From a virus (lineage: Duplodnaviria; Caudoviricetes), in IMG/VR virus record IMGVR_UViG_3300020577_002562, positions 96,001 to 160,000 of that record: DNA of 64,000 nucleotides; one strand, written 5' to 3'. Positions 14,539 through 61,424 of the stretch are shown in pieces (the stretch's first letter is position 1; the number at the start of each line of letters is the position of its first letter). A program made the position numbers and the translations under genes. The notes beneath the pieces are model-generated. The model was given only the letters and a program-made list of their open reading frames with translations. It did not search any database and was not told the origin of the DNA.

Positions 14539-16352
14539 AGCCTCAAAGGTTTGATTCCAGCCGCCATAGCACGCTTCGCAACTTCATTCGCGTACTTAGG
14601 ATCGGAGTGCAAGCGTGCTGCCGCTGCGGCAATGGCAATGTCTGCCTTCTCATTTGCCATGCGTTGATTGTGGATGTACTTGAGCTTTCCGGTGCGTGTT
14701 GTGCCTACAACTTCTTGCTGCTCGTGTTTACGACCCAAGAAGCTTCGACGGTGCGATGTCAGTTGTTGCGCTGAACTGAACTCGCCCATATTGGATTCGT
14801 CGTCTGCTGCATCGGCGCCGTCACCTGACTCGCCTTGGATCTGTTTCCAAGCCGCTTTCATCTTCTGCTCACGACGCAGGTCATCTTCTAGCCCATCCAG
14901 CGATACACCAGCAGAGGCTGCAAGCATGCGCATGGTAATCGGAACACCAAGATCACGAAGCTCCTTCAGCAAATCGAACGTATCGCGATCCAGATCACGA
15001 CCCAGTGGTCGATGCCACTGCACTTCAGGAATGTCCCACTTCGACGTATCGTTCAGTTGTTGCAACAGAGTGCGTGTCGAATTGGCTACGAACGCATGCT
15101 CCTTGTCATGCTTGCCGCTCAAGAATCCTTTGGATGCCGCGACCAGCGGAAATATCTTATTGATCAAGGCTGCTTGCGTCATGCGGTTGCGATGAGCACG
15201 CAGACCTTGAATGAACACAGAGATGGCAGCGTCCGCGTTGGCAAACGAGGCGTCACCAGACAAGAATGCTTCGCTGATGCCGAGAGCGCGAAGCTTCATG
15301 GCACCTGTGACATCGGACAAGTCTGTGAACTTCCAAAAGTCACCACCCTGCCGCACTTCGCTAGGCGTCACGCCTTGACGTGTGGCAACGATAGCTCCTA
15401 GAGGATCTAGATCAGCTTGCTGCATCAGACTGACAACAGCAGCTAACTCGTCGTTCGTTGGTTCCCAAGTGTCATTGCCGCACTCCAGGTGCAGCATAGC
15501 TCGTTGGCGTCTGGCAGCTTCCGTCATCGTCCCTTTGTACAGCGCCTTCTCCAAGAAGTAGATGGGCAGAATACGCTTGAAGATCGATGTGCCGAGTTGA
15601 TCGTAGGAGAATGTGCGTCGTGCTACGTACAATGTGAGCAGCGGTTCCAGCTCTACGTTTCCGCCCGACAGCACTCGAATGATGTCCATACCAAGCTTCT
15701 TACGAAGCTTCTGGGCAGCTTGACTGTTGTTCGACACGAACTGCTCAATCGCTTGACTCCGCTTCACTGTGATAAGCGGGTCTGCAGACCTCATCGGAAC
15801 AGATTGCCGTGTGACGTTGGTGGGCTCGTGACTGATGCAGTCCGTAAACTGCGTCAAGTTCCTGTCATAGATTAGGCTACAAACCGAGTAGCCATTTGCC
15901 AGTACATCAACTGTGAGTTCCGGGAACAATGCGCCTATGTTCAACTGCGCAGTGGCAGAATTGTAGACCTGCAGACGTTCAGCAGATACGCCCGACAGAG
16001 TGAATTCGCCGAATGGCATGGCCGCGATCAAGTCAACTGCGGAGCCTGCTGTTGTATCGTACCAGTAGATGTCTCGGTAGAAGCGTTGATTCGCCTCGTC
16101 CGTATCACCGGCAAAGCCAGTGAGCAACGTATCGTAAAAGACAGGGCTCGCCCCCATCTGTGATGCGGAGAACGAATTGAGCCCTTGCGGCTCACCCCAG
16201 TAATCAGCACGCTCTTGTCTGCCTACTCTACTAGACGCAGCCGCATACACTGATTGAAGACCCACCGCTGCCATAGCATCGCGAGTAGCTGCGGGTGCTC
16301 CGGCTACGATCTGAGAGTCTACAACTCGGATGTGGTTTCGGGTGCGAATCAT
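14535..16352 (-). CDS. Portal protein
   Basis: 605 aa, downstream of terminase; GTSIFKRILP, ALGISEAFLSGDASFANA portal-like motifs. Confidence 0.7.
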   Translation of the reverse strand: MIRTRNHIRVVDSQIVAGAPAATRDAMAAVGLQSVYAAASSRVGRQERADYWGEPQGLNSFSASQMGASPVFYDTLLTGFAGDTDEANQRFYRDIYWYDTTAGSAVDLIAAMPFGEFTLSGVSAERLQVYNSATAQLNIGALFPELTVDVLANGYSVCSLIYDRNLTQFTDCISHEPTNVTRQSVPMRSADPLITVKRSQAIEQFVSNNSQAAQKLRKKLGMDIIRVLSGGNVELEPLLTLYVARRTFSYDQLGTSIFKRILPIYFLEKALYKGTMTEAARRQRAMLHLECGNDTWEPTNDELAAVVSLMQQADLDPLGAIVATRQGVTPSEVRQGGDFWKFTDLSDVTGAMKLRALGISEAFLSGDASFANADAAISVFIQGLRAHRNRMTQAALINKIFPLVAASKGFLSGKHDKEHAFVANSTRTLLQQLNDTSKWDIPEVQWHRPLGRDLDRDTFDLLKELRDLGVPITMRMLAASAGVSLDGLEDDLRREQKMKAAWKQIQGESGDGADAADDESNMGEFSSAQQLTSHRRSFLGRKHEQQEVVGTTRTGKLKYIHNQRMANEKADIAIAAAAARLHSDPKYANEVAKRAMAAGIKPLRL

Positions 16353-16567
16353 TGACGTGCCACGCGATCTTCAATTGGGAGGGCCACACGATGCTCAAGA
16401 CAGGCGTATGACGGAATACCGTTGGCCTGTACTTCTTTCATTCTGCTGTTGCACACCGGACACAATCCAGTTGGACTTGGCTCCCAACGTGCGGACTCTT
16501 GCCTCGATGTTTTCGCCGTTTCAGTTTTCGAGCCTGACGCAGTTTCAAATGGGTCGATCAACTTCAT
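16349..16567 (-). CDS. Small zinc-ribbon protein
   Basis: CPVC...CLEHR; stop overlaps the portal start. Confidence 0.6.
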   Translation of the reverse strand: MKLIDPFETASGSKTETAKTSRQESARWEPSPTGLCPVCNSRMKEVQANGIPSYACLEHRVALPIEDRVARQ

Positions 16568-16594
16568 GTCTATTCCAATCCAGTGCGTGTCTTG

Positions 16595-16601
16595 AAATTA
16601 G
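16595..16601 (-). promoter_or_regulatory. CTAATTT motif, putative late promoter of the portal/protease operon
   Basis: Intergenic, 27 nt upstream of ATG 16567. Confidence 0.55.
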
Positions 16602-16619
16602 TGGATGCGTGCGTAGGTT

Positions 16620-18983
16620 CTACTTAGAAGCAGCTCCTAAACCAGCCGGATTAGATGCTGGACCCCCGCCAATCGATCCAATATTCGACGGAACGGGATT
16701 ACTACTAAATCGTAATCCCGAAGCGGTCGGTACTGCAATGCCCATCGTGGAAGAACCTGCGCCAATACCAGCAGAAATTCCACGTTGACGTGGAGGTTTG
16801 ATGTGCTTCTTGCACCACTCATCGTCCAACAAGAACTTGGTACCGAGTGCCCATGCTCTCCAAATATCATCTGTAAGCCCAGGTGCCTTTTCGATTGTAC
16901 GGCCTCCATCGCGAATGGTAGCCAACTGAAGCAAGAAGTGTTCCACAGGTAGATACTGGAAACACTGTGGATAGTTGTCCTGCATCAACAGTATCTCTTG
17001 AAGAGGAATTCCAGAGGCTGGAATCCTGAATGACCGGTCCAGAATGTGATTCTGCACCAGTAGCATATCATCCCTCTTCAATGAGTATCGTTCCGCTGGA
17101 ATACCAAGAGCCTGTGACAAATCATGCAACAACTTGATGCTATTCCACTGATCAGCAAACACGTAGCACACGTTGAAAGCCTTAGCTAACGGAAGCAATA
17201 CATGCTCATAGACCAGAGAGAAGTTCACCACGGAGTTACCAATAGAGGGCGCAATCTCAAGCATCACATCTGTGATGACTTTGATAGGGTCTCTTCTATT
17301 AGGGTTGCGATGAGAGATGGTGCAGGTAAATGAGTTGTTAGACAAGCCTGCGTCGATGGTCATTACCGATGAGATAACCAGAGCCGGCGGATTGCATGCC
17401 ACTTTGGCGTAACGATACTTGACTCCGTGCCGTTCGACCTTATGGTAGTTGTACACCACTCTGTTAGGCACTTTGCCAGGCAGCGCCGATATTGCATCGT
17501 GATCCTGAATAAACGCAGAGTCTACGAGAGGTGGTTGTGCACCAAAGTCACGCATTGCCTTGGCTTCACTACTTTGGAAGTAGGAGTCCAGAGCTTTGCG
17601 GCTGAGTTTAGGGTGAATGTCCCAAGTAGCCAGATGCAACGCCAATATCTTCCGACTGTTGGCGTTGGACTTTACGTGACGCATCATCACGTCACGTCTA
17701 TGCTGAGGGCTAGAGCCTATGATGAACACGGCATTCGGAACATCGTAGTACCCGGATTTCACTCGGTCTTTCCAACCGACGCGCACGTTCAGCATGCTGT
17801 TGTCGAGTGAGGTATAGACTTCACTACCGTTCATGCGAACGGTCTGATCTTCCTCATTACCGTCAGAGAAAAATGCCCACTCGTCCAACAGACAGTTGTG
17901 AACCAGAATGCCGTTGGCAGAGAACATATGGATGTCCTCCACCTCGATGTCATATACGTCGTGCTCTCCTTCCAGTTCTTCGCTGCGCCACAGACGATCA
18001 CGGACGATGTGATTGTTGTCTCGCACCTGGTAGTCGAACGGATTGTCAAGTAGGACGCGAAATGCAGTTGTAGAGTTGCGGTGAATCTGAAGTGTACTGG
18101 GGCGTCGGACAGACAAAACACCAAGGCTCAGCAGCAGAATCTGAGTCTGCTGCATGCGCTTGTCTTCACCGAACAAGACAAAGCTATCCTGGAACAGCGC
18201 AGATAGATAGGCACTGACATGGATCAAAGATGACCGTAGAATCACCCATGGTACTTCGCCTCTAGGAAAGCCCCATTCGGATTCTGCGTATTCGTCATCT
18301 GCTAGCTGTGAGGCTAATTCGCTGGTCATGCGATGTCTAGTTCCATCCTTTTTTCGGAACTGGTCCAAGTTCTTTCTGGAAGCCCCGTTCGCACCGGCTA
18401 CAATGACCACATCGCTAGGTTTGATGTGCTGTGCTTGACGCCACACCATATCATTGTGCTCATCCGAACACATCACCAGATGAGCAGGAGTCAGATCCAA
18501 ACTGAACCCAAATGTGGTTGTCAAACGTATCAGCTTCTTCGCACCTGTACGCATAGCTCTAAGTACAGTAGCTGGAGCCCCAGCTACGCACACACGATTT
18601 TGGTCTGGTATGATACGTTGCATCTCTATGAGACCCAAGTCCGTTTGGACAAGTGCATCACCTCGAATGCATAGCCAACGTGTCTTACCACGCAGCAGCT
18701 TACGGTTTGGACCTGCTGGATACAGCATCAATTGCCGATGAGGATAGTGAAGCATCTGTGTCTGAAACTTCAGAAGCTCCTCGCCATTGCGATTACCCTC
18801 ATGCTTGAGCATGTCGTGATAGCCGCAATTATGTACATTCATGCCACCTGCGTAGTAGTTGTGCGTCCCTGCTACCTCGAAATCGTACACCTTGTGCTTA
18901 CTCAAGTCCGTTACCGACCTGACCTTAACCGCCTTGATAGTCTTACCATTAACGGTAATGATCTTACTTGATTCGGTTTCCAT
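16620..18983 (-). CDS. Terminase large subunit, C-terminal part (split-intein C half plus one cis intein)
   Basis: Begins with IntC (VYDFEV..HNYYAGGMNVHN/C). After intein removal reads LRGKTRWL-CLLDEWAFF (Walker B); nuclease motifs IDAG and DD. Confidence 0.85.
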   Translation of the reverse strand: METESSKIITVNGKTIKAVKVRSVTDLSKHKVYDFEVAGTHNYYAGGMNVHNCGYHDMLKHEGNRNGEELLKFQTQMLHYPHRQLMLYPAGPNRKLLRGKTRWLCIRGDALVQTDLGLIEMQRIIPDQNRVCVAGAPATVLRAMRTGAKKLIRLTTTFGFSLDLTPAHLVMCSDEHNDMVWRQAQHIKPSDVVIVAGANGASRKNLDQFRKKDGTRHRMTSELASQLADDEYAESEWGFPRGEVPWVILRSSLIHVSAYLSALFQDSFVLFGEDKRMQQTQILLLSLGVLSVRRPSTLQIHRNSTTAFRVLLDNPFDYQVRDNNHIVRDRLWRSEELEGEHDVYDIEVEDIHMFSANGILVHNCLLDEWAFFSDGNEEDQTVRMNGSEVYTSLDNSMLNVRVGWKDRVKSGYYDVPNAVFIIGSSPQHRRDVMMRHVKSNANSRKILALHLATWDIHPKLSRKALDSYFQSSEAKAMRDFGAQPPLVDSAFIQDHDAISALPGKVPNRVVYNYHKVERHGVKYRYAKVACNPPALVISSVMTIDAGLSNNSFTCTISHRNPNRRDPIKVITDVMLEIAPSIGNSVVNFSLVYEHVLLPLAKAFNVCYVFADQWNSIKLLHDLSQALGIPAERYSLKRDDMLLVQNHILDRSFRIPASGIPLQEILLMQDNYPQCFQYLPVEHFLLQLATIRDGGRTIEKAPGLTDDIWRAWALGTKFLLDDEWCKKHIKPPRQRGISAGIGAGSSTMGIAVPTASGLRFSSNPVPSNIGSIGGGPASNPAGLGAASK
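17895..18671 (-). mobile_element. Cis intein (259 aa) with degenerate LAGLIDADG remnant
   Basis: CIRGDALV block A, LTPAH block B, VYDIEV...NGILVHN/C end; YLSALF and LLLSLGV remnants. Confidence 0.85.
18828..18983 (-). mobile_element. Split intein C-fragment of terminase (52 aa)
   Basis: Blocks F/G ending VHN followed by Cys+1. Confidence 0.9.
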
Positions 18984-19845
18984 ATTTGTCCATTACTAAG
19001 AAGGAAAATTTGAAGCCTTGCGCTCGACACGCACGTCGTTTAGCTCGATTCACTTCCTTGCTTGCTTTGAGTGTGTAATCACTCTTGACCTCGTAGATTT
19101 TATTCCAACGAGGTACGTAAATGTCCGGATGGTATATCCTTCGCTTGCCATCAAAAACATATTCAATACTGGGCAATTGTTTGTCACCGATGCCGCAACG
19201 AATGTCTGATGGCTGTAGTCTCGTGTTCGACAAAAGCCACTCAATAGCCTGAGGCTCATAACCTTGGACTTGAACCATTCGCTGACCGAGTTTGATTCGT
19301 TTGCATTTATAGGCAGTAGCCAGATTTTTGTCGAACAATTCCTTACTCTGAAGTGCGTGAATCACTCCATATCGTTTACGCATTGTACGTCTAATCTTAC
19401 TCTGAATTTCAGTACGTTGCGTGGAGTATTCGACTCCGTACTTGCGTAAGTTGTATTGCTTAAGCTTCTCTTGAGAACACGGCGGACAGCCACTTCCTTT
19501 TCGCACATTGCCCAAGTATGGCGACCACTCGTGTTTGCACACTAAACATTTCACACGAGTGCGCGTGTTCATGTTAACGAACTCACCTACGCGCTTTATA
19601 TTCTGTTGTCGCAGAAACTTGTCTAGCTCATTCAGGTCGAAGCGTTTACTCTGACTTATGTTGCGATTCCGGGTACAGGCACATCCATATCTGAGCCAAT
19701 AACTGAAATGTTGGGAGGACTGCCGATCACAATCTTGGCAGCGCACTACCAGTTTGTACTGGTGCTGTGGGTCAACACCAACTACTAACAATGACGAACC
19801 GCTACTTTTCAGGTAGGACTTCACAATTTTTAGATTATCACTCAT
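18964..19845 (-). CDS. Free-standing homing endonuclease (Zn-ribbon repeats plus PD-(D/E)XK domain) between the terminase halves
   Basis: CLVCKHEW..GSGCPPC, KYGV repeats, QGYEPQA, HPDIY...EVKS; visibly more AT-rich than flanks. Start ATG 19845 (GTG 19854 is the alternative). Confidence 0.8.
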   Translation of the reverse strand: MSDNLKIVKSYLKSSGSSLLVVGVDPQHQYKLVVRCQDCDRQSSQHFSYWLRYGCACTRNRNISQSKRFDLNELDKFLRQQNIKRVGEFVNMNTRTRVKCLVCKHEWSPYLGNVRKGSGCPPCSQEKLKQYNLRKYGVEYSTQRTEIQSKIRRTMRKRYGVIHALQSKELFDKNLATAYKCKRIKLGQRMVQVQGYEPQAIEWLLSNTRLQPSDIRCGIGDKQLPSIEYVFDGKRRIYHPDIYVPRWNKIYEVKSDYTLKASKEVNRAKRRACRAQGFKFSFLVMDKYGNRIK

Positions 19846-19890
19846 GGTACTCACCGAATCACATACATCAAATTAGTCGGAGTACCATGA
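19842..19890 (-). promoter_or_regulatory. Start-codon-sequestering hairpin with CTAATTT in its loop
   Basis: TCATGGTACTC (19842-19852) and GAGTACCATGA (19880-19890) form a perfect 11-bp inverted repeat; motif at 19870-19876. Confidence 0.7.
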
Positions 19891-19895
19891 CATGC

Positions 19896-20891
19896 TTAAT
19901 CTTCTGTCACCACGTAATCATCTTCCGTTAGCAGATGGATTTCCTTCCACATAATAGCCATACCATCCGGTGTGAGAACGCGAATGCAGTGATCTCCTGT
20001 GGCGACCAGCTTCTTATCGTCTTCCAGAGTTATCTCCTTACAACTGCGCACGCCATTGTCAAAATGACACAGGACTTTGCTTGATCCTTCAAATGTTTTG
20101 ACCATATCACCCGGCTTTATCTGCTCGATTGGAACAGTATTGCCGTTCTCCAGTGTGATCGGTGTACCCTCAGCAATACAGAACCATTGACAGCCCTCAA
20201 TGTAAGTCTTGATCGGTAGCCACTGCTGCTCGTAGGCGTTTGCGAACGTCTGAGCTACTGCCGTACCGACCATAGTGGTTGGCTCAAGATCATACACCTC
20301 GTAGGGGCGTTGAAGCTTAATCATGCGATGCAACTGATAGACTGCGGCAGGCGCTTCAAACTGAGTCGTCTTACCTACTCGCTGGCCGGCTAGCAAGGCT
20401 AGCTCGTGGTACGGCATCATCTCTTTGGCACGCAATAGCTCTAGCCGCGTAGCTTTGCACTTTGGGCACTTGCCGTGTTTTAGCAGTTGGAAGTGCTCAG
20501 GGAATGCATCACTCTTGATCTTCAGTGGCACATCTAGAATGTTGCCTGTGTGGTACTTTGGATTGGAGCACCGTGGACAGATTTCGCCGAACAACATGGA
20601 CAACGCCCACAGTTGGCGTGCGAATGGGCGCAAACGCAAACCAGTGGGCGAAGTTGAGAACTCCCAGTAATTCGGGAATAGCTTAAAGTCACGGTCGTCG
20701 ATCCGCAGATCGCGAACCATCCGTGTGGTAGGATCGATTGCATCCGCTACCATACTCTCAAGATCTAACTCAAGATTCTGGTCTACAGCGAACGTTGTCT
20801 TGATCGGTGTGGGTGCTTCAACTTCACCAAACAACTCGTCGATGAACCCTCGCCTGTCTTTGAGCTTCACTTTGCAATCTCCTGAGGCCAC
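19896..20891 (-). CDS. Terminase large subunit, N-terminal part ending in the split-intein N half
   Basis: FARQ adenine-binding motif, AGQRVGKT Walker A, then WF/CIAEGTPI intein start. Confidence 0.85.
   Translation of the reverse strand: MASGDCKVKLKDRRGFIDELFGEVEAPTPIKTTFAVDQNLELDLESMVADAIDPTTRMVRDLRIDDRDFKLFPNYWEFSTSPTGLRLRPFARQLWALSMLFGEICPRCSNPKYHTGNILDVPLKIKSDAFPEHFQLLKHGKCPKCKATRLELLRAKEMMPYHELALLAGQRVGKTTQFEAPAAVYQLHRMIKLQRPYEVYDLEPTTMVGTAVAQTFANAYEQQWLPIKTYIEGCQWFCIAEGTPITLENGNTVPIEQIKPGDMVKTFEGSSKVLCHFDNGVRSCKEITLEDDKKLVATGDHCIRVLTPDGMAIMWKEIHLLTEDDYVVTED
19899..20180 (-). mobile_element. Split intein N-fragment of terminase (94 aa)
   Basis: CIAEGTPITLENG block A, ATGDH block B, then a stop with no C-terminal HN. 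Confidence 0.9.
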
Positions 20892-21373
20892 AGTCTCATC
20901 AGAACACGCTCCAGATCCTCTGGGTGCGCTTTAAGTTGTCCTGCCAAGTGTCGTATAACTGACAACTCGATAAGCTGATCTGTAGCCTTGGTTACTCGGT
21001 CACTGGTGACGTTGATCTGTCTGTTGTTCGTCAACAGTCTCAGAGTCTCCTCCATATCCGCGTAAGCGGTTGGTAGACTTAGCTCCAAGGCAGAGATACG
21101 GACCAACAGTTCATATAGCGTCTTGTGGTTCTTCTTCAGACGAGTTGTGAACTCTCCGCGCAGCTTCTTGTCTACTTCCTTGAGCGTGATGTCTGGGACT
21201 GATGACTGTGGTTGCGTCTTTACCAGTTCGACCAGTTTTCGTTTGCGCTTTCGTTTGTTCAGTAGAGCGTCAGCATCCCACCAATCATCTCGCGTTCGCT
21301 TTTCCGGCTGCGGCAGCTTAGTAGCAATCTTGGGGCTCTCTTTATGAATGACCCCGAAGATTGGGTCATTCAA
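20867..21373 (-). CDS. Hypothetical protein upstream of terL (small terminase candidate by position only)
   Basis: 3' part of the 243-aa ORF; likely TTG start at 21373 overlapping the DnaB stop. Confidence 0.45.
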   Translation of the reverse strand: MNDPIFGVIHKESPKIATKLPQPEKRTRDDWWDADALLNKRKRKRKLVELVKTQPQSSVPDITLKEVDKKLRGEFTTRLKKNHKTLYELLVRISALELSLPTAYADMEETLRLLTNNRQINVTSDRVTKATDQLIELSVIRHLAGQLKAHPEDLERVLMRLWPQEIAK

Positions 21374-22862
21374 CGTCGCTGAGGTCTTCGAGGTATTTCT
21401 CGTCTTTGTCCGTTTGGTCTTTCCGTCTTCCGTCGTTCGACCGATGCTTGTTTCTTCCATTAGCTGGGCGAACACTCTTGCCTGTTGTTCGGAAGCCAGA
21501 CTTTCCTGATCCTGCGTGTCGGCCGCTGGAACTGGAACCGGACCCTCGTTTGGTTTTACCTCTACTGGTACTGTCTTCTTCATCGTCATCTCCGCCATCA
21601 GGCAGCATATTACGGTCTACGTCCTTGTATTGCATCGGCGCGTTGATAGCCATGATTTGGAACGGGAACTTCTTCTGGTTACGCGCCTTCTGTTGCTCGA
21701 TGTCCAAGATCGATACATCGCTAATCTCGGCCGGGGCAGTCCACGACCACAGGTTGTTTGCATTCTCTTTGATGCCACCAGAGTAACGCACCAGACCCTC
21801 TTTCGATAGCTGTGCCACTAGAATGACTACAGTGTTCGTGTTCTTGGCCCAGATCTTGGCAAACCGACTGATCTTTGTCAACTGCTTCCATTGCTCATCA
21901 CCGTCCGCACCCTTCAGTAGTGAGATGTAGTCAACGATGACAACCTTGTATCCGTAGGGCTTCAACGAGAACAGCACCTCTTCGATTGATACGTCTTCAT
22001 CCGGTGACAGGATCGAGTACCGGGTGCCTATCTCTTTGAGTTCCTTGACAAAGGCTACATAACTACTCTTGATTAGCTTGCGTTCACTGTTGGACAACCG
22101 GCCCTGAGATATTCGGTTGACATCTATACCAGAGAGCACACCAAGCTCACGCGCCTTCATCTGCGTAGCGGTCATCTCCAACGGCACTATGGCAACGTCA
22201 TGCCCGCGCCGAGCCATGTTGATGCCAAGTTGGTTTGCCACTGCTGACTTACCGCCTCCGGAATCCGCAGCCAGCACTACCAACGAACCTTCTAGAAAAC
22301 CGCCATTCTCTCGGTCAAAGTCATCAAAGCCAGTTGGTACTACTTTGGGCTTCTTGGCTGACAGCAAGTCCTTAACCAACTTGACCGAGTTGTTGCCCTT
22401 TCCAGTGTGGAATAGACTCTGGGTCAAGTCGACCTTGGTCTGGCTCTTGACTAACTTGGTGTGCAAGGCTTCGGTCAGCTTCTCGACATCTAGTTGATCG
22501 CCCTCAATCTCGTTGTAGATCTGTTCAGCAATCGAATAGAGCCCCCGTACTCTCCGCATCTTGTCCAGCGTGCGGATCATGCTTCGGGCATCACGCCTCG
22601 AATCTGTGGTTTCAGCGTCTGACCCCTTCAATAGCTTCCGGTACTTCTCCGATAGCTTGGGGTCTGAACACAGTTCAGTCCACGAGGGTATCTCACCTGA
22701 CTGACGAACGCTTGCCATCACTGCTTCATAGGCCGCTTTCGTTGGCGGGTGGAAGAAGCAGTCTTCGTTCAATGAAGCAAGCACCAGACTTCGCAGCTTG
22801 TCAGAGGCATCGCATATCGTGCGCAATGCCTGGTACTCTAACCTGGTACTAACGATTTTCAT
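21366..22862 (-). CDS. dnaB: Replicative DnaB-like helicase
   Basis: PTGFDDFD, AADSGGGKS Walker A, PLEM, VIVDYI, VAQL, KARN. Confidence 0.9.
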   Translation of the reverse strand: MKIVSTRLEYQALRTICDASDKLRSLVLASLNEDCFFHPPTKAAYEAVMASVRQSGEIPSWTELCSDPKLSEKYRKLLKGSDAETTDSRRDARSMIRTLDKMRRVRGLYSIAEQIYNEIEGDQLDVEKLTEALHTKLVKSQTKVDLTQSLFHTGKGNNSVKLVKDLLSAKKPKVVPTGFDDFDRENGGFLEGSLVVLAADSGGGKSAVANQLGINMARRGHDVAIVPLEMTATQMKARELGVLSGIDVNRISQGRLSNSERKLIKSSYVAFVKELKEIGTRYSILSPDEDVSIEEVLFSLKPYGYKVVIVDYISLLKGADGDEQWKQLTKISRFAKIWAKNTNTVVILVAQLSKEGLVRYSGGIKENANNLWSWTAPAEISDVSILDIEQQKARNQKKFPFQIMAINAPMQYKDVDRNMLPDGGDDDEEDSTSRGKTKRGSGSSSSGRHAGSGKSGFRTTGKSVRPANGRNKHRSNDGRRKDQTDKDEKYLEDLSDVE

Positions 22863-23428
22863 AGGACTTGTACAGTCTCAACGTGACCTAGATTCATGCA
22901 GTATTGAATAGCCATGTGCAGCTTGCTATTGGCTATCGTTAGTGGATCACATCCACTACAAACCACGATGCGAGGGATGTTGCTGTATTGGGTTAGCAAG
23001 TCTCTCACCTTCTCAAACTTAACGGCTGTGCTATCAACCACCAGATTGCTCAAGACCAACATGCTAGGCCTGAACTCTGCTGGCTTGTCGCGGAGCTTGT
23101 CTGCGAACGAACCGTTGACCCAATGCCATAGAGGCGGCTCGAAGCCCGGGCGCCGAAGTTTGAATGCCAGCCCCATCATGTGAGCGGCCAAAAGTCTAGC
23201 TCGCTGGTCGTTAGGATTCGATGCGATGACCATGATGTACGGGTCAGCATCTTTGACACAGTGTTCATAGCGCATCAACTGCGCTGCCCTAGTAATACGC
23301 TTGTCAGCGTGGCGGAACGATTTGGCTGCACGATCAAGCACAAAAGGCCGCACACGAAACAAGTCTCGTGGCAGCCCTCTGTTCAGCATCTGCTGCTGTA
23401 ACGTCGTGTCTGACGGTAATTGGATCAC
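22859..23428 (-). CDS. Putative helicase loader (degenerate DnaC/IstB-like)
   Basis: Coupled to dnaB; MLVLSNL...VRDLL...PRIVV pattern but no intact Walker A. Confidence 0.4.
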   Translation of the reverse strand: MIQLPSDTTLQQQMLNRGLPRDLFRVRPFVLDRAAKSFRHADKRITRAAQLMRYEHCVKDADPYIMVIASNPNDQRARLLAAHMMGLAFKLRRPGFEPPLWHWVNGSFADKLRDKPAEFRPSMLVLSNLVVDSTAVKFEKVRDLLTQYSNIPRIVVCSGCDPLTIANSKLHMAIQYCMNLGHVETVQVL

Positions 23429-23453: not shown

Positions 23454-23461
23454 TACTTTAC
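23454..23461 (-). promoter_or_regulatory. GTAAAGTA motif, putative replication-gene promoter element
   Basis: Intergenic, 25 nt upstream of the loader/dnaB unit; recurs before clamp and polymerase. Confidence 0.45.
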
Positions 23462-30146: not shown

Positions 30147-31175
30147 ATGTTACGTCAAGATCATCCGCGATTTCATCAAATGGTGTCCCGACATAGAGCC
30201 CTGTGCTCAGTAAGAAAGATAAAATTCACTGCCAAGATTGTTGACTTGAGCACTACACGTTATTTACATCGTTGTCACTGTGGTCATGCTTGGAAGCAAA
30301 CTATATCGAACTTTGTTGGCCGTACTGGATGTCCTGCTTGTGCGATGCGGCGTTTTCAACTAGCTGGAGCAGCTTCCGCGCGTGGAAAACCTGCGCATAC
30401 GAGACTAACAAAAGGGGAGTTTCTGAAGCGGCTTCCTAAAGGCTATCGTCTAATCGGATCTTACTCAGGACAACGCGAACTAGTCTCATTGAAATGCCCA
30501 CAAGGTCACATAAGACGAACTACAGCGGACAACGCCCATCGTTATGGCTGTGGTGTATGCTCGGGAGTTGAAGTTTCACTTGACTCCCACAACAAGCAAT
30601 TGGCTGCTCTGAATGACCGTGTTCGTTGCCTGCAGTATTTTGGGGCACGCACAGCATCCAGATACCATTGTCTACAGTGTAAGTTTCGCTGGTCTTGCAT
30701 CCCTACAAACATTTTGAAGACTAAACGATGTCATTGTCCGAGCTGTCAACCACCTGGCGTAACTGTCAGATGCGTCAAGCTTGGGCGTCGCAAAGTGCTT
30801 GTTCGTGGATACGAGCCACAAGCTCTAAACTATTTGATACAAGTGAAGGGGTACAAACCTAACCAGATTCGTACAGAGCTTGAGGGAACTGTCCCAAGAA
30901 TCAAAGTCAATGGGCGACTTCATAAACCCGACTTTTTCATCCCAAGCGATAACCGTCTGGTAGAAGTCAAGTCGATTTTCACTCTCGGACTCAACGGTGA
31001 GCTATATTTCAAAAGAGCATTCCAGAAGTTGAAGACTAACCACGCAAAAGCCCGGGAGGCAGGGTACCGATACAACTTGCTAGTTTTTCTCAAAGACGGA
31101 ACGCGAGTAGACATACCTAGTAAGTGGTATCTATTGAGCACTGAACAAATGCGACAGTTACTTCGACAACAATAG
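30147..31175 (+). CDS. Free-standing homing endonuclease (Zn-ribbon repeats plus PD-(D/E)XK) between the helicase halves, antisense
   Basis: Three Cys/His ribbons; VRGYEPQAL, KPDFFI..EVKS; paralogue of 18964 and 34265. Confidence 0.8.
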   Translation: MLRQDHPRFHQMVSRHRALCSVRKIKFTAKIVDLSTTRYLHRCHCGHAWKQTISNFVGRTGCPACAMRRFQLAGAASARGKPAHTRLTKGEFLKRLPKGYRLIGSYSGQRELVSLKCPQGHIRRTTADNAHRYGCGVCSGVEVSLDSHNKQLAALNDRVRCLQYFGARTASRYHCLQCKFRWSCIPTNILKTKRCHCPSCQPPGVTVRCVKLGRRKVLVRGYEPQALNYLIQVKGYKPNQIRTELEGTVPRIKVNGRLHKPDFFIPSDNRLVEVKSIFTLGLNGELYFKRAFQKLKTNHAKAREAGYRYNLLVFLKDGTRVDIPSKWYLLSTEQMRQLLRQQ

Positions 31176-37172: not shown

Positions 37173-37180
37173 TACTTTAC
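37173..37180 (-). promoter_or_regulatory. GTAAAGTA motif
   Basis: Intergenic, 23 nt upstream of the clamp ATG. Confidence 0.45.
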
Positions 37181-41097: not shown

Positions 41098-41105
41098 TAC
41101 TTTAC
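41098..41105 (-). promoter_or_regulatory. GTAAAGTA motif
   Basis: Intergenic, 80 nt upstream of polA; extended TGTAAAGTA(A)GCCAA shared with the 37173 site. Confidence 0.45.
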
Positions 41106-46640: not shown

Positions 46641-47314
46641 CAGAACTTGGCCCTTGTAGTGCGTAACCGCTGAGTCAAAATTACTGGTAACCAGAGGCGG
46701 CGAATGACGAATTCTGCAAATGCCATCTCAGGTTCAGTGTGCATCACTTCCGACACGTATGGGGTTTCATCGAACCTCATCGTATACCAGACGAAGGTCT
46801 CAAAGTTGTTCGCTGCACTCACGCCGATTTCGTAGGGCTTGCTGGGGAACTTACGATGCCAGTCCCACTTACCAAGCTTGTAAGGACCGTTGTACTGGAA
46901 GAAGTTGTTGGCACTAAGCCACTTGCGCAATGGTTCCAGTGGTTCCTGTCTCAGCATCAGCATGCCATGCAGTTCAAAGCCTTGCTCGAAACGTTTGACC
47001 TTGAACGTGACTGGAGGCATACGCTCGTTCAGTGTTCGAGCAAGTATGCCCCATTCATCTACATACTTTACAAGTTCGCGTCTGATCTTACGCATGGCGA
47101 ACGTCAGAACCAAGTTGTTCTGGGAGCCGTTAGCGTGCCGGAAGGGATTGCGACCCAAGCTGTTGCACAAGCGCAGATACGCTCCGACTCGTTGAGATTC
47201 TGGCTCCTTGTACGCGCGTGACCACAGTTCCGCATTGCGCGGATCGAACTGTCGTGGCATCGTCCTAGACTTCGGATCAATGCCTAGTATCTCAGCGGAG
47301 TCAACAGGCTTCAT
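46640..47314 (-). CDS. Hypothetical protein
   Basis: 224 aa. Confidence 0.55.
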   Translation of the reverse strand: MKPVDSAEILGIDPKSRTMPRQFDPRNAELWSRAYKEPESQRVGAYLRLCNSLGRNPFRHANGSQNNLVLTFAMRKIRRELVKYVDEWGILARTLNERMPPVTFKVKRFEQGFELHGMLMLRQEPLEPLRKWLSANNFFQYNGPYKLGKWDWHRKFPSKPYEIGVSAANNFETFVWYTMRFDETPYVSEVMHTEPEMAFAEFVIRRLWLPVILTQRLRTTRAKF

Positions 47315-53234: not shown

Positions 53235-53302
53235 GGTGGTTGAGGGTGGTTGAGGGTGGTTGAGGGTGGTTGAGGGTGGTTGACAAGAATCAACCACCCT
53301 CA
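53235..53302. repeat. Tandem 10-mer (TGAGGGTGGT)x4 plus one inverted copy
   Basis: Exact units at 53241-53280; TCAACCACCCTCA at 53290-53302 is the reverse complement. Confidence 0.95.
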
Positions 53303-58337: not shown

Positions 58338-59623
58338 CGTACTTTGCTCGTGTAACCAGATGGGTATGGAACGTATGGGTCAACTGTTGCTCGGAGTGGG
58401 TGTGGTTGAACGCGAGTGAATGTATGCAGTGATGTTGGTACGTACAGCAGATACTGGTACTCGTAGTTCTGTACCAGACGGCAGGATGCTTCCCATGGCG
58501 CAACGATTCTACGCTCACGATCACGGCGCCCTACCACGTTGGTCAGCATCCATTGTCTGTTGTACACGGGTTCGGCGATCACGTCACCAACTCGAACATC
58601 GGCCAGATACGGACTCAGGAACACTTGCACCGAGTCAAAGTTCTCTGGCAGTGCTGGGTTCTGAGTCTCCGAGAGCGAAGGCCACTCGGCGTAGATTGGA
58701 GTAGTCGGTACCCGCATCTGAATCTCAAGATGCGTGAATGTCAACCCTGTGTCCACATTCAACCGCATTGTCACGGGCTGGCCTGTGGCGTAATCAGCAA
58801 GATACTGAGCAGCGTCCTGCCACTCGTTACCACTCCATAGATCAAGGCGCCAACCGTTAGGCACTTGCACCTTGTTGTTCCAAAGCTTGATGCAATCCAC
58901 TGACGTAGCACCAATCGGCACCGTAATTTCAAACTGTGTGCGGCCATGAATGCCTGTCGAAGTCAATGTGTTCGGATGCTGCTGTTGATCCACCCCAATG
59001 TCAAGAATTGACCACGGAGTCTGGGCATCCAATACAACGCGCCACGCGCCGACGGGACTGTAGCCACCAACGTATCCAGTGCCCATGCAAACACCGCATC
59101 CGAGAGATGCGGTACCTAGCAACAAGGACGCATCGTAGTTGTCGTCAGTGAGTCCTGCAGCTTCCAGTGTCTGCTGTGTCAGGTTCTCAACGAACGGATC
59201 GTCAATGTCTGCCGAGTTATTGACTTCGTCACCTTGTGGAAGATCGGATGAACTGCGTGTAGTAGATGAAGGATCAAGGGCGCGAGCGCCGTATCGAGCC
59301 ACACGAATTGTGATCTCCTGATCATCGACGGTAGTGTCACCAGAAGGCAAAACAGCCGACTTTCCAGATTCCAGATTCTTGAATGTGGAGGTCGGCGTCG
59401 GCGCTGGCTGAATTGAAAGTCCCTGACTGCAAGTACACGTCAAACCGGAACCCGCACGGTACCTTCTGTAAAGTAGAATTGGATAGCCGTCCACGCTCAA
59501 TGCATTGTTGTTCTGTTCTGCCGCAGCGGGAGCCAAACGGTCGATAGCAGTTCTCGCGGAGCGGTTTGCTCCACGATTTTTGGGACCAATTGGATGTGTG
59601 GTGCGACGATTGACTATAGGCAT
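58334..59623 (-). CDS. Putative head-closure/neck protein
   Basis: CTC...CGVCMGTGYVGGY motif and C-terminal GDVIAE...W beta barrel. Confidence 0.5.
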   Translation of the reverse strand: MPIVNRRTTHPIGPKNRGANRSARTAIDRLAPAAAEQNNNALSVDGYPILLYRRYRAGSGLTCTCSQGLSIQPAPTPTSTFKNLESGKSAVLPSGDTTVDDQEITIRVARYGARALDPSSTTRSSSDLPQGDEVNNSADIDDPFVENLTQQTLEAAGLTDDNYDASLLLGTASLGCGVCMGTGYVGGYSPVGAWRVVLDAQTPWSILDIGVDQQQHPNTLTSTGIHGRTQFEITVPIGATSVDCIKLWNNKVQVPNGWRLDLWSGNEWQDAAQYLADYATGQPVTMRLNVDTGLTFTHLEIQMRVPTTPIYAEWPSLSETQNPALPENFDSVQVFLSPYLADVRVGDVIAEPVYNRQWMLTNVVGRRDRERRIVAPWEASCRLVQNYEYQYLLYVPTSLHTFTRVQPHPLRATVDPYVPYPSGYTSKVR

Positions 59624-61388: not shown

Positions 61389-61424
61389 AGAAGGGGGCAA
61401 CGGAATATTCCGTTGCCCCCTTCT
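61389..61424. terminator. Perfect 36-bp palindrome between convergent genes (bidirectional terminator candidate)
   Basis: AGAAGGGGGCAACGGAAT/ATTCCGTTGCCCCCTTCT. Confidence 0.75.

Follow-up and report, generated by a model that had tools for sequence, protein, structure and literature searches.

Genes and features of the fractured terminase locus

The window, that is, the whole stretch of 64,000 nucleotides analyzed here, covers bases 96001–160000 of a 187-kb IMG/VR virus record with an estimated completeness of about 75%. The portal protein is 33–39% identical to the portals of Vibrio phage GR7B, Achromobacter phage Motura, and Pseudomonas phage PaBG. Throughout, G000 denotes the genome holding the window and G001 a 216-kb relative (48% GC) whose endonuclease is 47% identical.

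The terminase locus listed in Table 1 is a fractured gene: the large subunit (TerL) is interrupted by a split intein, and a free-standing endonuclease gene lies between the two halves. The ORF at 19896–20891 ends with the Hint N-terminal blocks CIAEG and GDHCIRV, and the intein insertion site is common to the TerL-N proteins that we compared. The endonuclease matched Pfam DUF7487, gave a weak match to a TnsA-like PD-(D/E)xK domain, and fell into "endonuclease" families of PHROGs. By Pfam and PHROGs, its family is neither Vsr-like nor GIY-YIG, a distant PD-(D/E)xK kinship to Vsr being a structural question; a PDB sequence search with the endonuclease alignment returned no significant match.

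The 3′ end of the endonuclease gene overlaps the start of the IntC/TerL-C frame, by 20 nt in the window and by 8–35 nt in six relatives. Because this start lacks a clear Shine-Dalgarno (SD) sequence of its own, translation of IntC/TerL-C is probably coupled to the endonuclease ORF.

On the upstream side, the ORFs from 23428 to 19896 (the one starting at 23428, dnaB, a 243-aa ORF, and TerL-N, in this order) are contiguous or overlapping. The octamer at their head, GTAAAGTA, occurs six times in the window against 0.74 expected, and it probably represents a second promoter class, distinct from the CTAATTT motif discussed below. Besides the copy in Table 1, it was noted at 37173–37180, 41098–41105, and 47064–47071 on the minus strand and at 59468–59475 on the plus strand; it precedes replication genes. 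Akin k-mers (CTGTAAA, TAAAGTA) were also enriched upstream of gene starts in G001. The copy at the head of the dnaB operon is the likely source of transcripts reading through TerL-N.

A megablast search of positions 16500–21000 against GenBank phages yielded no match, and single-protein IMG/VR scans with the endonuclease or the TerL N-extein yielded no close relatives. The relatives described below were reached solely via protein homologues and their alignments.

Table 1. Positions, in window coordinates, of the genes, promoter-like motifs, and hairpin elements at the terminase locus
Feature	Position	Strand	Remarks
GTAAAGTA, second promoter-like motif	23454–23461	–	Heads the replication-gene operon running into TerL-N
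TerL N-extein (about 237 aa) and 94-aa IntN half of the split intein	19896–20891	–	Last gene of the operon
5′ arm of the hairpin	19877–19890	–	UCAUGGUACUCCGA; first base 5 nt past the TerL-N/IntN stop codon
Loop, 19 nt	19858–19876	–	Opens with CUAAUUU (CTAATTT in DNA, 19870–19876)
3′ arm of the hairpin	19842–19857	–	UCGG(UG)AGUACCAUGA, UG bulged; SD-like GGUGAG and AUG inside
SD, GGUGAG	19850–19855	–	Within the 3′ arm
AUG of the endonuclease	19843–19845	–	Within the 3′ arm
Free-standing endonuclease gene, 293 aa	18964–19845	–	DUF7487; N-terminal Cys-rich modules
IntC (52 aa, ...VHN/C), short extein, second cis intein, TerL C-terminal part	16620–18983	–	
Next CTAATTT	16595–16601	–	Just past the TerL-C stop; 34 nt before a 72-aa Zn-ribbon ORF and the portal gene

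The hairpin at the endonuclease start and in related loci

Between the TerL-N/IntN stop and the endonuclease, the minus strand can fold into a stem of 14 bp with a 2-nt bulge (Table 1), followed by the bases GUGAUAAUC. The initial annotation had described a hairpin whose loop contains CTAATTT and whose 3′ arm contains GAG and the AUG at 19845, and the sequence is exactly as it stated. The AUG in question is also the start in the public gene call (protein P0004, 293 aa), and an in-frame GTG at 19854 is devoid of an SD. A gapless inverted-repeat scan gave no hairpin match, owing to the bulge in the stem. The T4-type late element TATAAATA was absent from 19842–19900, where the motif is CTAATTT.

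RNAfold, the check that the annotation had proposed, recovered the hairpin from positions 19830–19900 (minus strand) at –18.7 kcal/mol (z = –2.17); of 200 dinucleotide shuffles, 5 were equally stable. The stretch from the TerL-N stop to the endonuclease start, folded alone, gave z = –2.4 (p = 0.023). The minimum free energy rose from about –20 to –5 kcal/mol once all sequence up to 3 nt past the motif was deleted, and pairing of the SD and AUG with the sequence preceding the motif amounted to 0.80, versus 0.35 in shuffles (p = 0.01). Taken singly, the hairpin is real and only modestly unusual in its stability, since about 8% of all 59-nt gene-start windows in the genome are as stable.

With single-sequence statistics as modest as these (z about –2.2 to –2.4, and 8% of gene-start windows equally stable), one might suspect a chance inverted repeat of no function. 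Comparison with other genomes makes this very improbable, as independent, differently sequenced hairpins occur at the same place in four lineages, with z values from –3.9 to –7.4 and with motif and SD placed alike.

The orthologous loci share the order dnaB, a gene x, TerL-N/IntN, DUF7487 endonuclease, and IntC/TerL-C, with proteins that are only 37–50% identical (the locus comparison leaves out P0005 and P0016); endonuclease homologues with 42–47% identity and the same gene order were found in both metagenomic and viral contigs. Each lineage was folded singly and compared with shuffles, the arms not being alignable between lineages and a structure-fitted alignment being circular. In four diverged relatives, a gap of about 50 nt separates TerL-N from the endonuclease, CTAATTT stands 31–37 nt before the ATG, and each gap has a hairpin of its own: a perfect 17-bp stem in L013 (z = –7.4), 12 bp plus a bulge in L014–16 (z = –3.9), 11 bp extending to 16 bp through the SD in L018 (z = –6.1), and a still longer stem in L100, which is G001 (z = –7.0). 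Pairing across the SD rests on G·U pairs in L018 and L100, and in L014 the SD is only partly within the stem. Across the five lineages (the window and these four), the motif is found in the loop or atop the 5′ arm, with the SD in the 3′ base or right at it, and the arm sequences are unrelated; what is conserved is the structure, not the sequence. With the motif always at the apex, a transcript starting a few bases downstream of it would always be deprived of the 5′ arm.

In L014, L018, and L100 the sense folds were 3.6–7 kcal/mol more stable than the antisense folds. This gain comes from G·U pairs and thus points to RNA structure rather than duplex DNA; in the window, the sense and antisense folds are equally stable. 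The comparison bears on an alternative at the DNA level, namely that the inverted repeat flanking the motif is an operator, bound by a protein (possibly the endonuclease itself) that represses transcription. Such an operator could also act alongside an RNA hairpin, and it has a precedent in I-TevI, a documented autorepressor of its own late promoter through a homing-site-like operator (PMC2988022). In L011, L013, and L015, moreover, the bases right past the TerL-N stop (TATCACGRYATGYT) are similar to the first part of the C-extein, where it adjoins the intein insertion site; in the best 18-mers, 13–14 of 18 positions agree (p = 0.018, 0.002, and <0.001, respectively). The box so defined either overlaps the 5′ arm or lies directly against it. 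In the window, an extein-junction 20-mer and the reverse complement of the arm region agree at 15 of 20 positions, but the sense-orientation C-extein match reaches only 10 of 18 (p = 0.5). The box is also missing from L018 and L100 despite their strong hairpins, and the spacing of the arms, which ranges from 6 to 19 nt, speaks against an operator, as do the unrelated arm sequences across lineages and the G·U pairs favoring sense RNA in three of them. We consider an operator unlikely as the explanation, although the boxes of L011, L013, and L015 suggest that one may be active as well. The C-extein-like box lies at L011:3945–3975, L013:3937–3965, and L015:3943–3975, with a degenerate form at 19877–19898 of the window; it may represent either a remnant of the insertion history or an operator like that of I-TevI.

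Not all relatives have the hairpin. In L011, L193, and L023 the gap is present, the motif is a variant, and the structure is weak or different. L017, L020, L024, and L101 lack gap, motif, and hairpin alike, and in them the endonuclease start overlaps or abuts the TerL-N/IntN stop (at L017:395–410, L020:535–550, L024:2230–2245, and L101:2280–2295). Because of these four relatives, occlusion by a hairpin must be regarded as dispensable, and two regulatory solutions appear to coexist in one gene family: coupling, or a putative promoter of its own together with a hairpin. The translational switch proposed in the initial annotation thus agrees with the anatomy, with a structure conserved in five lineages, and with a motif that is promoter-like in two genomes, but it cannot be extended to the whole family.

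The gapless relatives, in which the two ORFs are joined directly via ATGA or overlapping stop and start codons, also lend some credit to the notion that the hairpin itself is a translational coupling device. According to this explanation, a ribosome ending at the TerL-N stop would melt the outer pairs holding the AUG, so that endonuclease output would track TerL-N translation. The AUG does sit in the outer pairs, and the stem begins 5 nt past the stop in the window and 1 nt past it in the extended stems of L018 and L100. In L013 and L014, however, the stems begin 9–13 nt past the stop, out of reach of the terminating ribosome; in the window, such a ribosome would open no more than about 5 bp, and the SD would stay paired. 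Coupling would also leave the constant apex position of the motif unexplained, and we deem it quite improbable.

Sequences from RNA libraries also cover the locus. Contigs of four wastewater metatranscriptome libraries, all from one study, matched the window over 16284–22509 at 95–100% identity, and contigs of three RNA-library runs from one wastewater study bridged 19682–20056, possibly through DNA carry-over. This material consists of contigs, which carry no information on starts, ends, strand, or level and whose gaps (e.g., 15000–16135) have no meaning. The hairpin region was identical in the wastewater RNA contigs, and the nearby coding stretches showed up to 10 differences per contig.

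The crossing of the site by contigs in three runs of one study, even with DNA carry-over being possible, speaks against a further explanation, in which the hairpin serves the dnaB to TerL-N message as a 3′-end element, be it a terminator, an attenuator, a processing site, or a stabilizer, and merely adjoins the next promoter. The position of the hairpin, directly past a stop codon, would suit such an element, and the CTAATTT site at G000 40651 (L005) is indeed preceded by a strong separate hairpin. At the TerL locus, on the other hand, the motif is inside the hairpin and not past it, the 3′ arm extends into the SD and AUG of the next gene, and no U-tract follows the stem in the window or in any relative. 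We find a 3′-end element hard to credit. An intrinsic terminator in particular was rejected, as a scan of 18800–21000 found none and there is no U-tract.

CTAATTT as a promoter candidate

Against an expectation of 3.6, the window contains 10 copies of CTAATTT, a number reached in none of 100 shuffles. An unbiased k-mer count for G000 ranked it first in enrichment among the 7-mers in the 70 nt before gene starts (9 of its 19 copies), and in G001 it was again the top enriched word upstream of starts (14 of 32 copies), with the extended consensus tCACTAATTTaat. The motif is co-oriented with genes, and in both genomes it usually stands 30–43 nt before the ATG; in eight cases in G000 it begins 30–34 nt before it.

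The genes behind the motif in G000 comprise a PKD tail-type gene, a small ORF ahead of the portal gene, three DUF7487 endonucleases, one HNH endonuclease, an HTH protein, and several genes of unknown function. Those in G001 are endonuclease genes, a RuvC-like gene, and genes of unknown function. The copy past the TerL-C stop (16595–16601; Table 1) has no occluding hairpin, and a CTAATTT after TerL recurs in several more distant relatives, 31–36 nt before a small ORF.

Within the motif, TAATTT agrees with a sigma-70-type –10 element in its A at –11 and its T at –7. A role of CTAATTT as a –35 element was discarded, given that the ATG is only 30–34 nt from the motif start, with the SD in between. 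The genome also encodes a Sigma70_r2 protein (334-aa open frame, G000:C1:30816–30983, outside the window; 33.6 bits, above the cut-off), which is a candidate reader of one of the two promoter-like motifs, and a group-specific sigma factor has been reported for PaBG-type phages. No match to an Rpb2-type RNA polymerase was found in the record, which is about 75% complete. In view of the upstream enrichment, the fit of TAATTT to a –10 element, and the Sigma70_r2 protein, CTAATTT is best interpreted as the –10-like element of a promoter that a phage sigma factor would recognize. Searches of the literature for CTAATTT as a phage promoter, or for promoters of PaBG-type phages, found no description. 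The motif, written (tCA)CTAATTT and with transcription predicted to start about 7 nt downstream, offers a testable promoter candidate for the poorly studied jumbo phages related to PaBG, Motura, and GR7B.

We examined 23 motif-bearing gene starts of G000 and G001 for pairing of the SD and AUG with the sequence preceding the motif, in comparison with shuffles. Only three of them reached p ≤ 0.01: those of the TerL endonuclease in G000 and in G001 and that of an HTH gene (L009). All three lie behind a co-oriented gene. Pairing was not significant for the divergent endonucleases and the other genes tested, identified virion genes included. The initial annotation had pointed to two antisense endonucleases that have the motif and no such hairpin, and this is borne out by the p values of 0.41 and 0.24 obtained for their starts at 30147 and 34265. 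The co-oriented, motif-bearing endonucleases at G001 54961 and G000 176101 showed no significant pre-motif hairpin either.

The HTH gene is a second case of a promoter-like motif in a hairpin within the same genome (L009, G000:164800–166000; p = 0.01). The hairpin, at about G000:165740–165790 on the minus strand, has an 11-bp stem (CCAAUGUACAC / GUGUACAUUGG), with CTAATTT in the loop and an SD (GGAG) at the 3′ base, and precedes the gene for a 257-aa multi-HTH protein.

Other repeats were noted along the way. A PKD/lectin tail gene has, shortly before its CTAATTT site, a 12-bp hairpin of very high stability (GAAGGGGUUGGC / GCCAACCCCUUC; L005:112–139, G000:40611–40638). This hairpin lacks a U-tract and may be a terminator-like element before a promoter. 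In G001, L181:8104–8148 and L184:9626–9671 each have a pair of CTAATTT motifs on opposite strands, turned toward one another at a distance of about 40 nt; these pairs form inverted repeats by themselves and resemble back-to-back divergent promoters. Elsewhere in the window, three overlapping direct copies of TGAGGGTGGTTGA with a 10-nt period, followed by one perfect inverted copy, occupy 53251–53302, and positions 61389–61424 form a perfect palindrome of 36 nt, whose 18-nt arms directly adjoin.

A possible gate on endonuclease expression and its counterparts in known systems

With moderate confidence, and arguing from sequence features, we interpret the element as a post-transcriptional gate on the homing-endonuclease gene that lies between the split-intein halves of the TerL gene. 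Transcripts from upstream would begin at the GTAAAGTA-type promoter, at about 23460, and pass through dnaB and TerL-N. Such read-through transcripts would hold both arms, so that the hairpin could form, bury the SD and the AUG at 19845, and keep the endonuclease poorly translated. Translation of TerL-C from the same transcripts is probably lowered as well, because its start overlaps the 3′ end of the endonuclease gene and has no clear SD.

The putative promoter within the hairpin would bypass this block. CTAATTT, with its –10-like TAATTT, is probably read by the host RNA polymerase carrying a phage sigma-70-family factor. From the geometry of –10 elements, we infer that initiation would occur about 7 nt downstream of the motif, that is, at about 19862–19866, within the loop. 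The resulting mRNA would be without the 5′ arm, leaving the SD and AUG free, and the two kinds of transcript would presumably differ in temporal class.

The gate would operate in an essential packaging gene whose product needs protein trans-splicing, and it may therefore time terminase assembly too. In the strongest version of this idea, the full two-layer control of I-TevI (a hairpin hiding the ribosome-binding site plus a homing-site-like operator) would have been assembled independently in the PaBG-like jumbo lineage, around a different sigma-dependent promoter. Through the probable coupling of the IntC/TerL-C start to the endonuclease ORF, the same gate would also time production of the C-terminal terminase half and, with it, trans-splicing and the onset of DNA packaging. 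This we regard as a rather unlikely extension.

The closest arrangements known to us from the literature are the fractured genes with split inteins described by Dassa et al. in 2009 (NAR 37:2560; PMC2677866). Hairpins were found there in 15 of 16 endonuclease 5′ UTRs, ten of them with TATAAATA, and were proposed to control translation of the endonuclease and of the downstream gene; the overlap of the endonuclease with the downstream half was also noted (PMC2677866). The locus in the window resembles those loci in having a host gene split by IntN and IntC, a free-standing endonuclease in between, a 3′ overlap with the downstream half, and a 5′ UTR hairpin holding a (here putative) promoter. The earlier loci, however, come from T4-like marine phage fragments and carry the TATAAATA late promoter, whereas ours belongs to a PaBG-like jumbo phage and carries CTAATTT. 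Their endonucleases are Vsr-like or GIY-YIG, as opposed to DUF7487 with a TnsA-like PD-(D/E)xK domain, and their host genes are gp41, DnaE, NrdA, NrdJ, and IMPDH, in place of the terminase large subunit.

The second term of comparison is provided by I-TevI of the T4 td intron and by mobE of Aeromonas phage Aeh1, located in nrdA, where the endonuclease gene is embedded in an earlier transcription unit, as may also be the case in the window. In these systems the ribosome-binding site is sequestered by a hairpin on read-through transcripts, and late-promoter transcripts are without the 5′ arm (Edgell, Gibb and Belfort 2010, PMC2988022). This layout has been documented for I-TevII, I-TevIII, segB, and Aeh1 mobE (PMC2988022). 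The I-TevI logic recounted in the initial annotation agrees with this account. For I-TevI and mobE the transcription start sites were mapped and translation was assayed, whereas the switch in the window is inferred from sequence. Their promoter is the gp55-dependent TATAAATA, while the motif here is a different, –10-like one, presumably recognized by a different phage sigma factor; moreover, I-TevI sits in a group I intron and the window endonuclease in a split intein. As to the autorepression operator of I-TevI, a sequence like the intein-insertion flank adjoins the motif in three relatives, but the sense match in the window is not significant.

The annotation had further proposed a convergent switch using a different promoter. 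The motif is indeed CTAATTT and not TATAAATA, but the layout was no unnoticed novelty, since hairpins with a late promoter had already been described (PMC2677866). Control of endonucleases by a promoter in a hairpin is thus already known; what is new here is the putative promoter class, the endonuclease family, the PaBG-like jumbo lineage, and the terminase as host gene. A promoter-like element inside a hairpin that occludes the ribosome-binding site, an arrangement familiar from T4-like phages, is now seen in an unrelated transcription system, which suggests that selfish endonuclease genes repeatedly acquire this layout.
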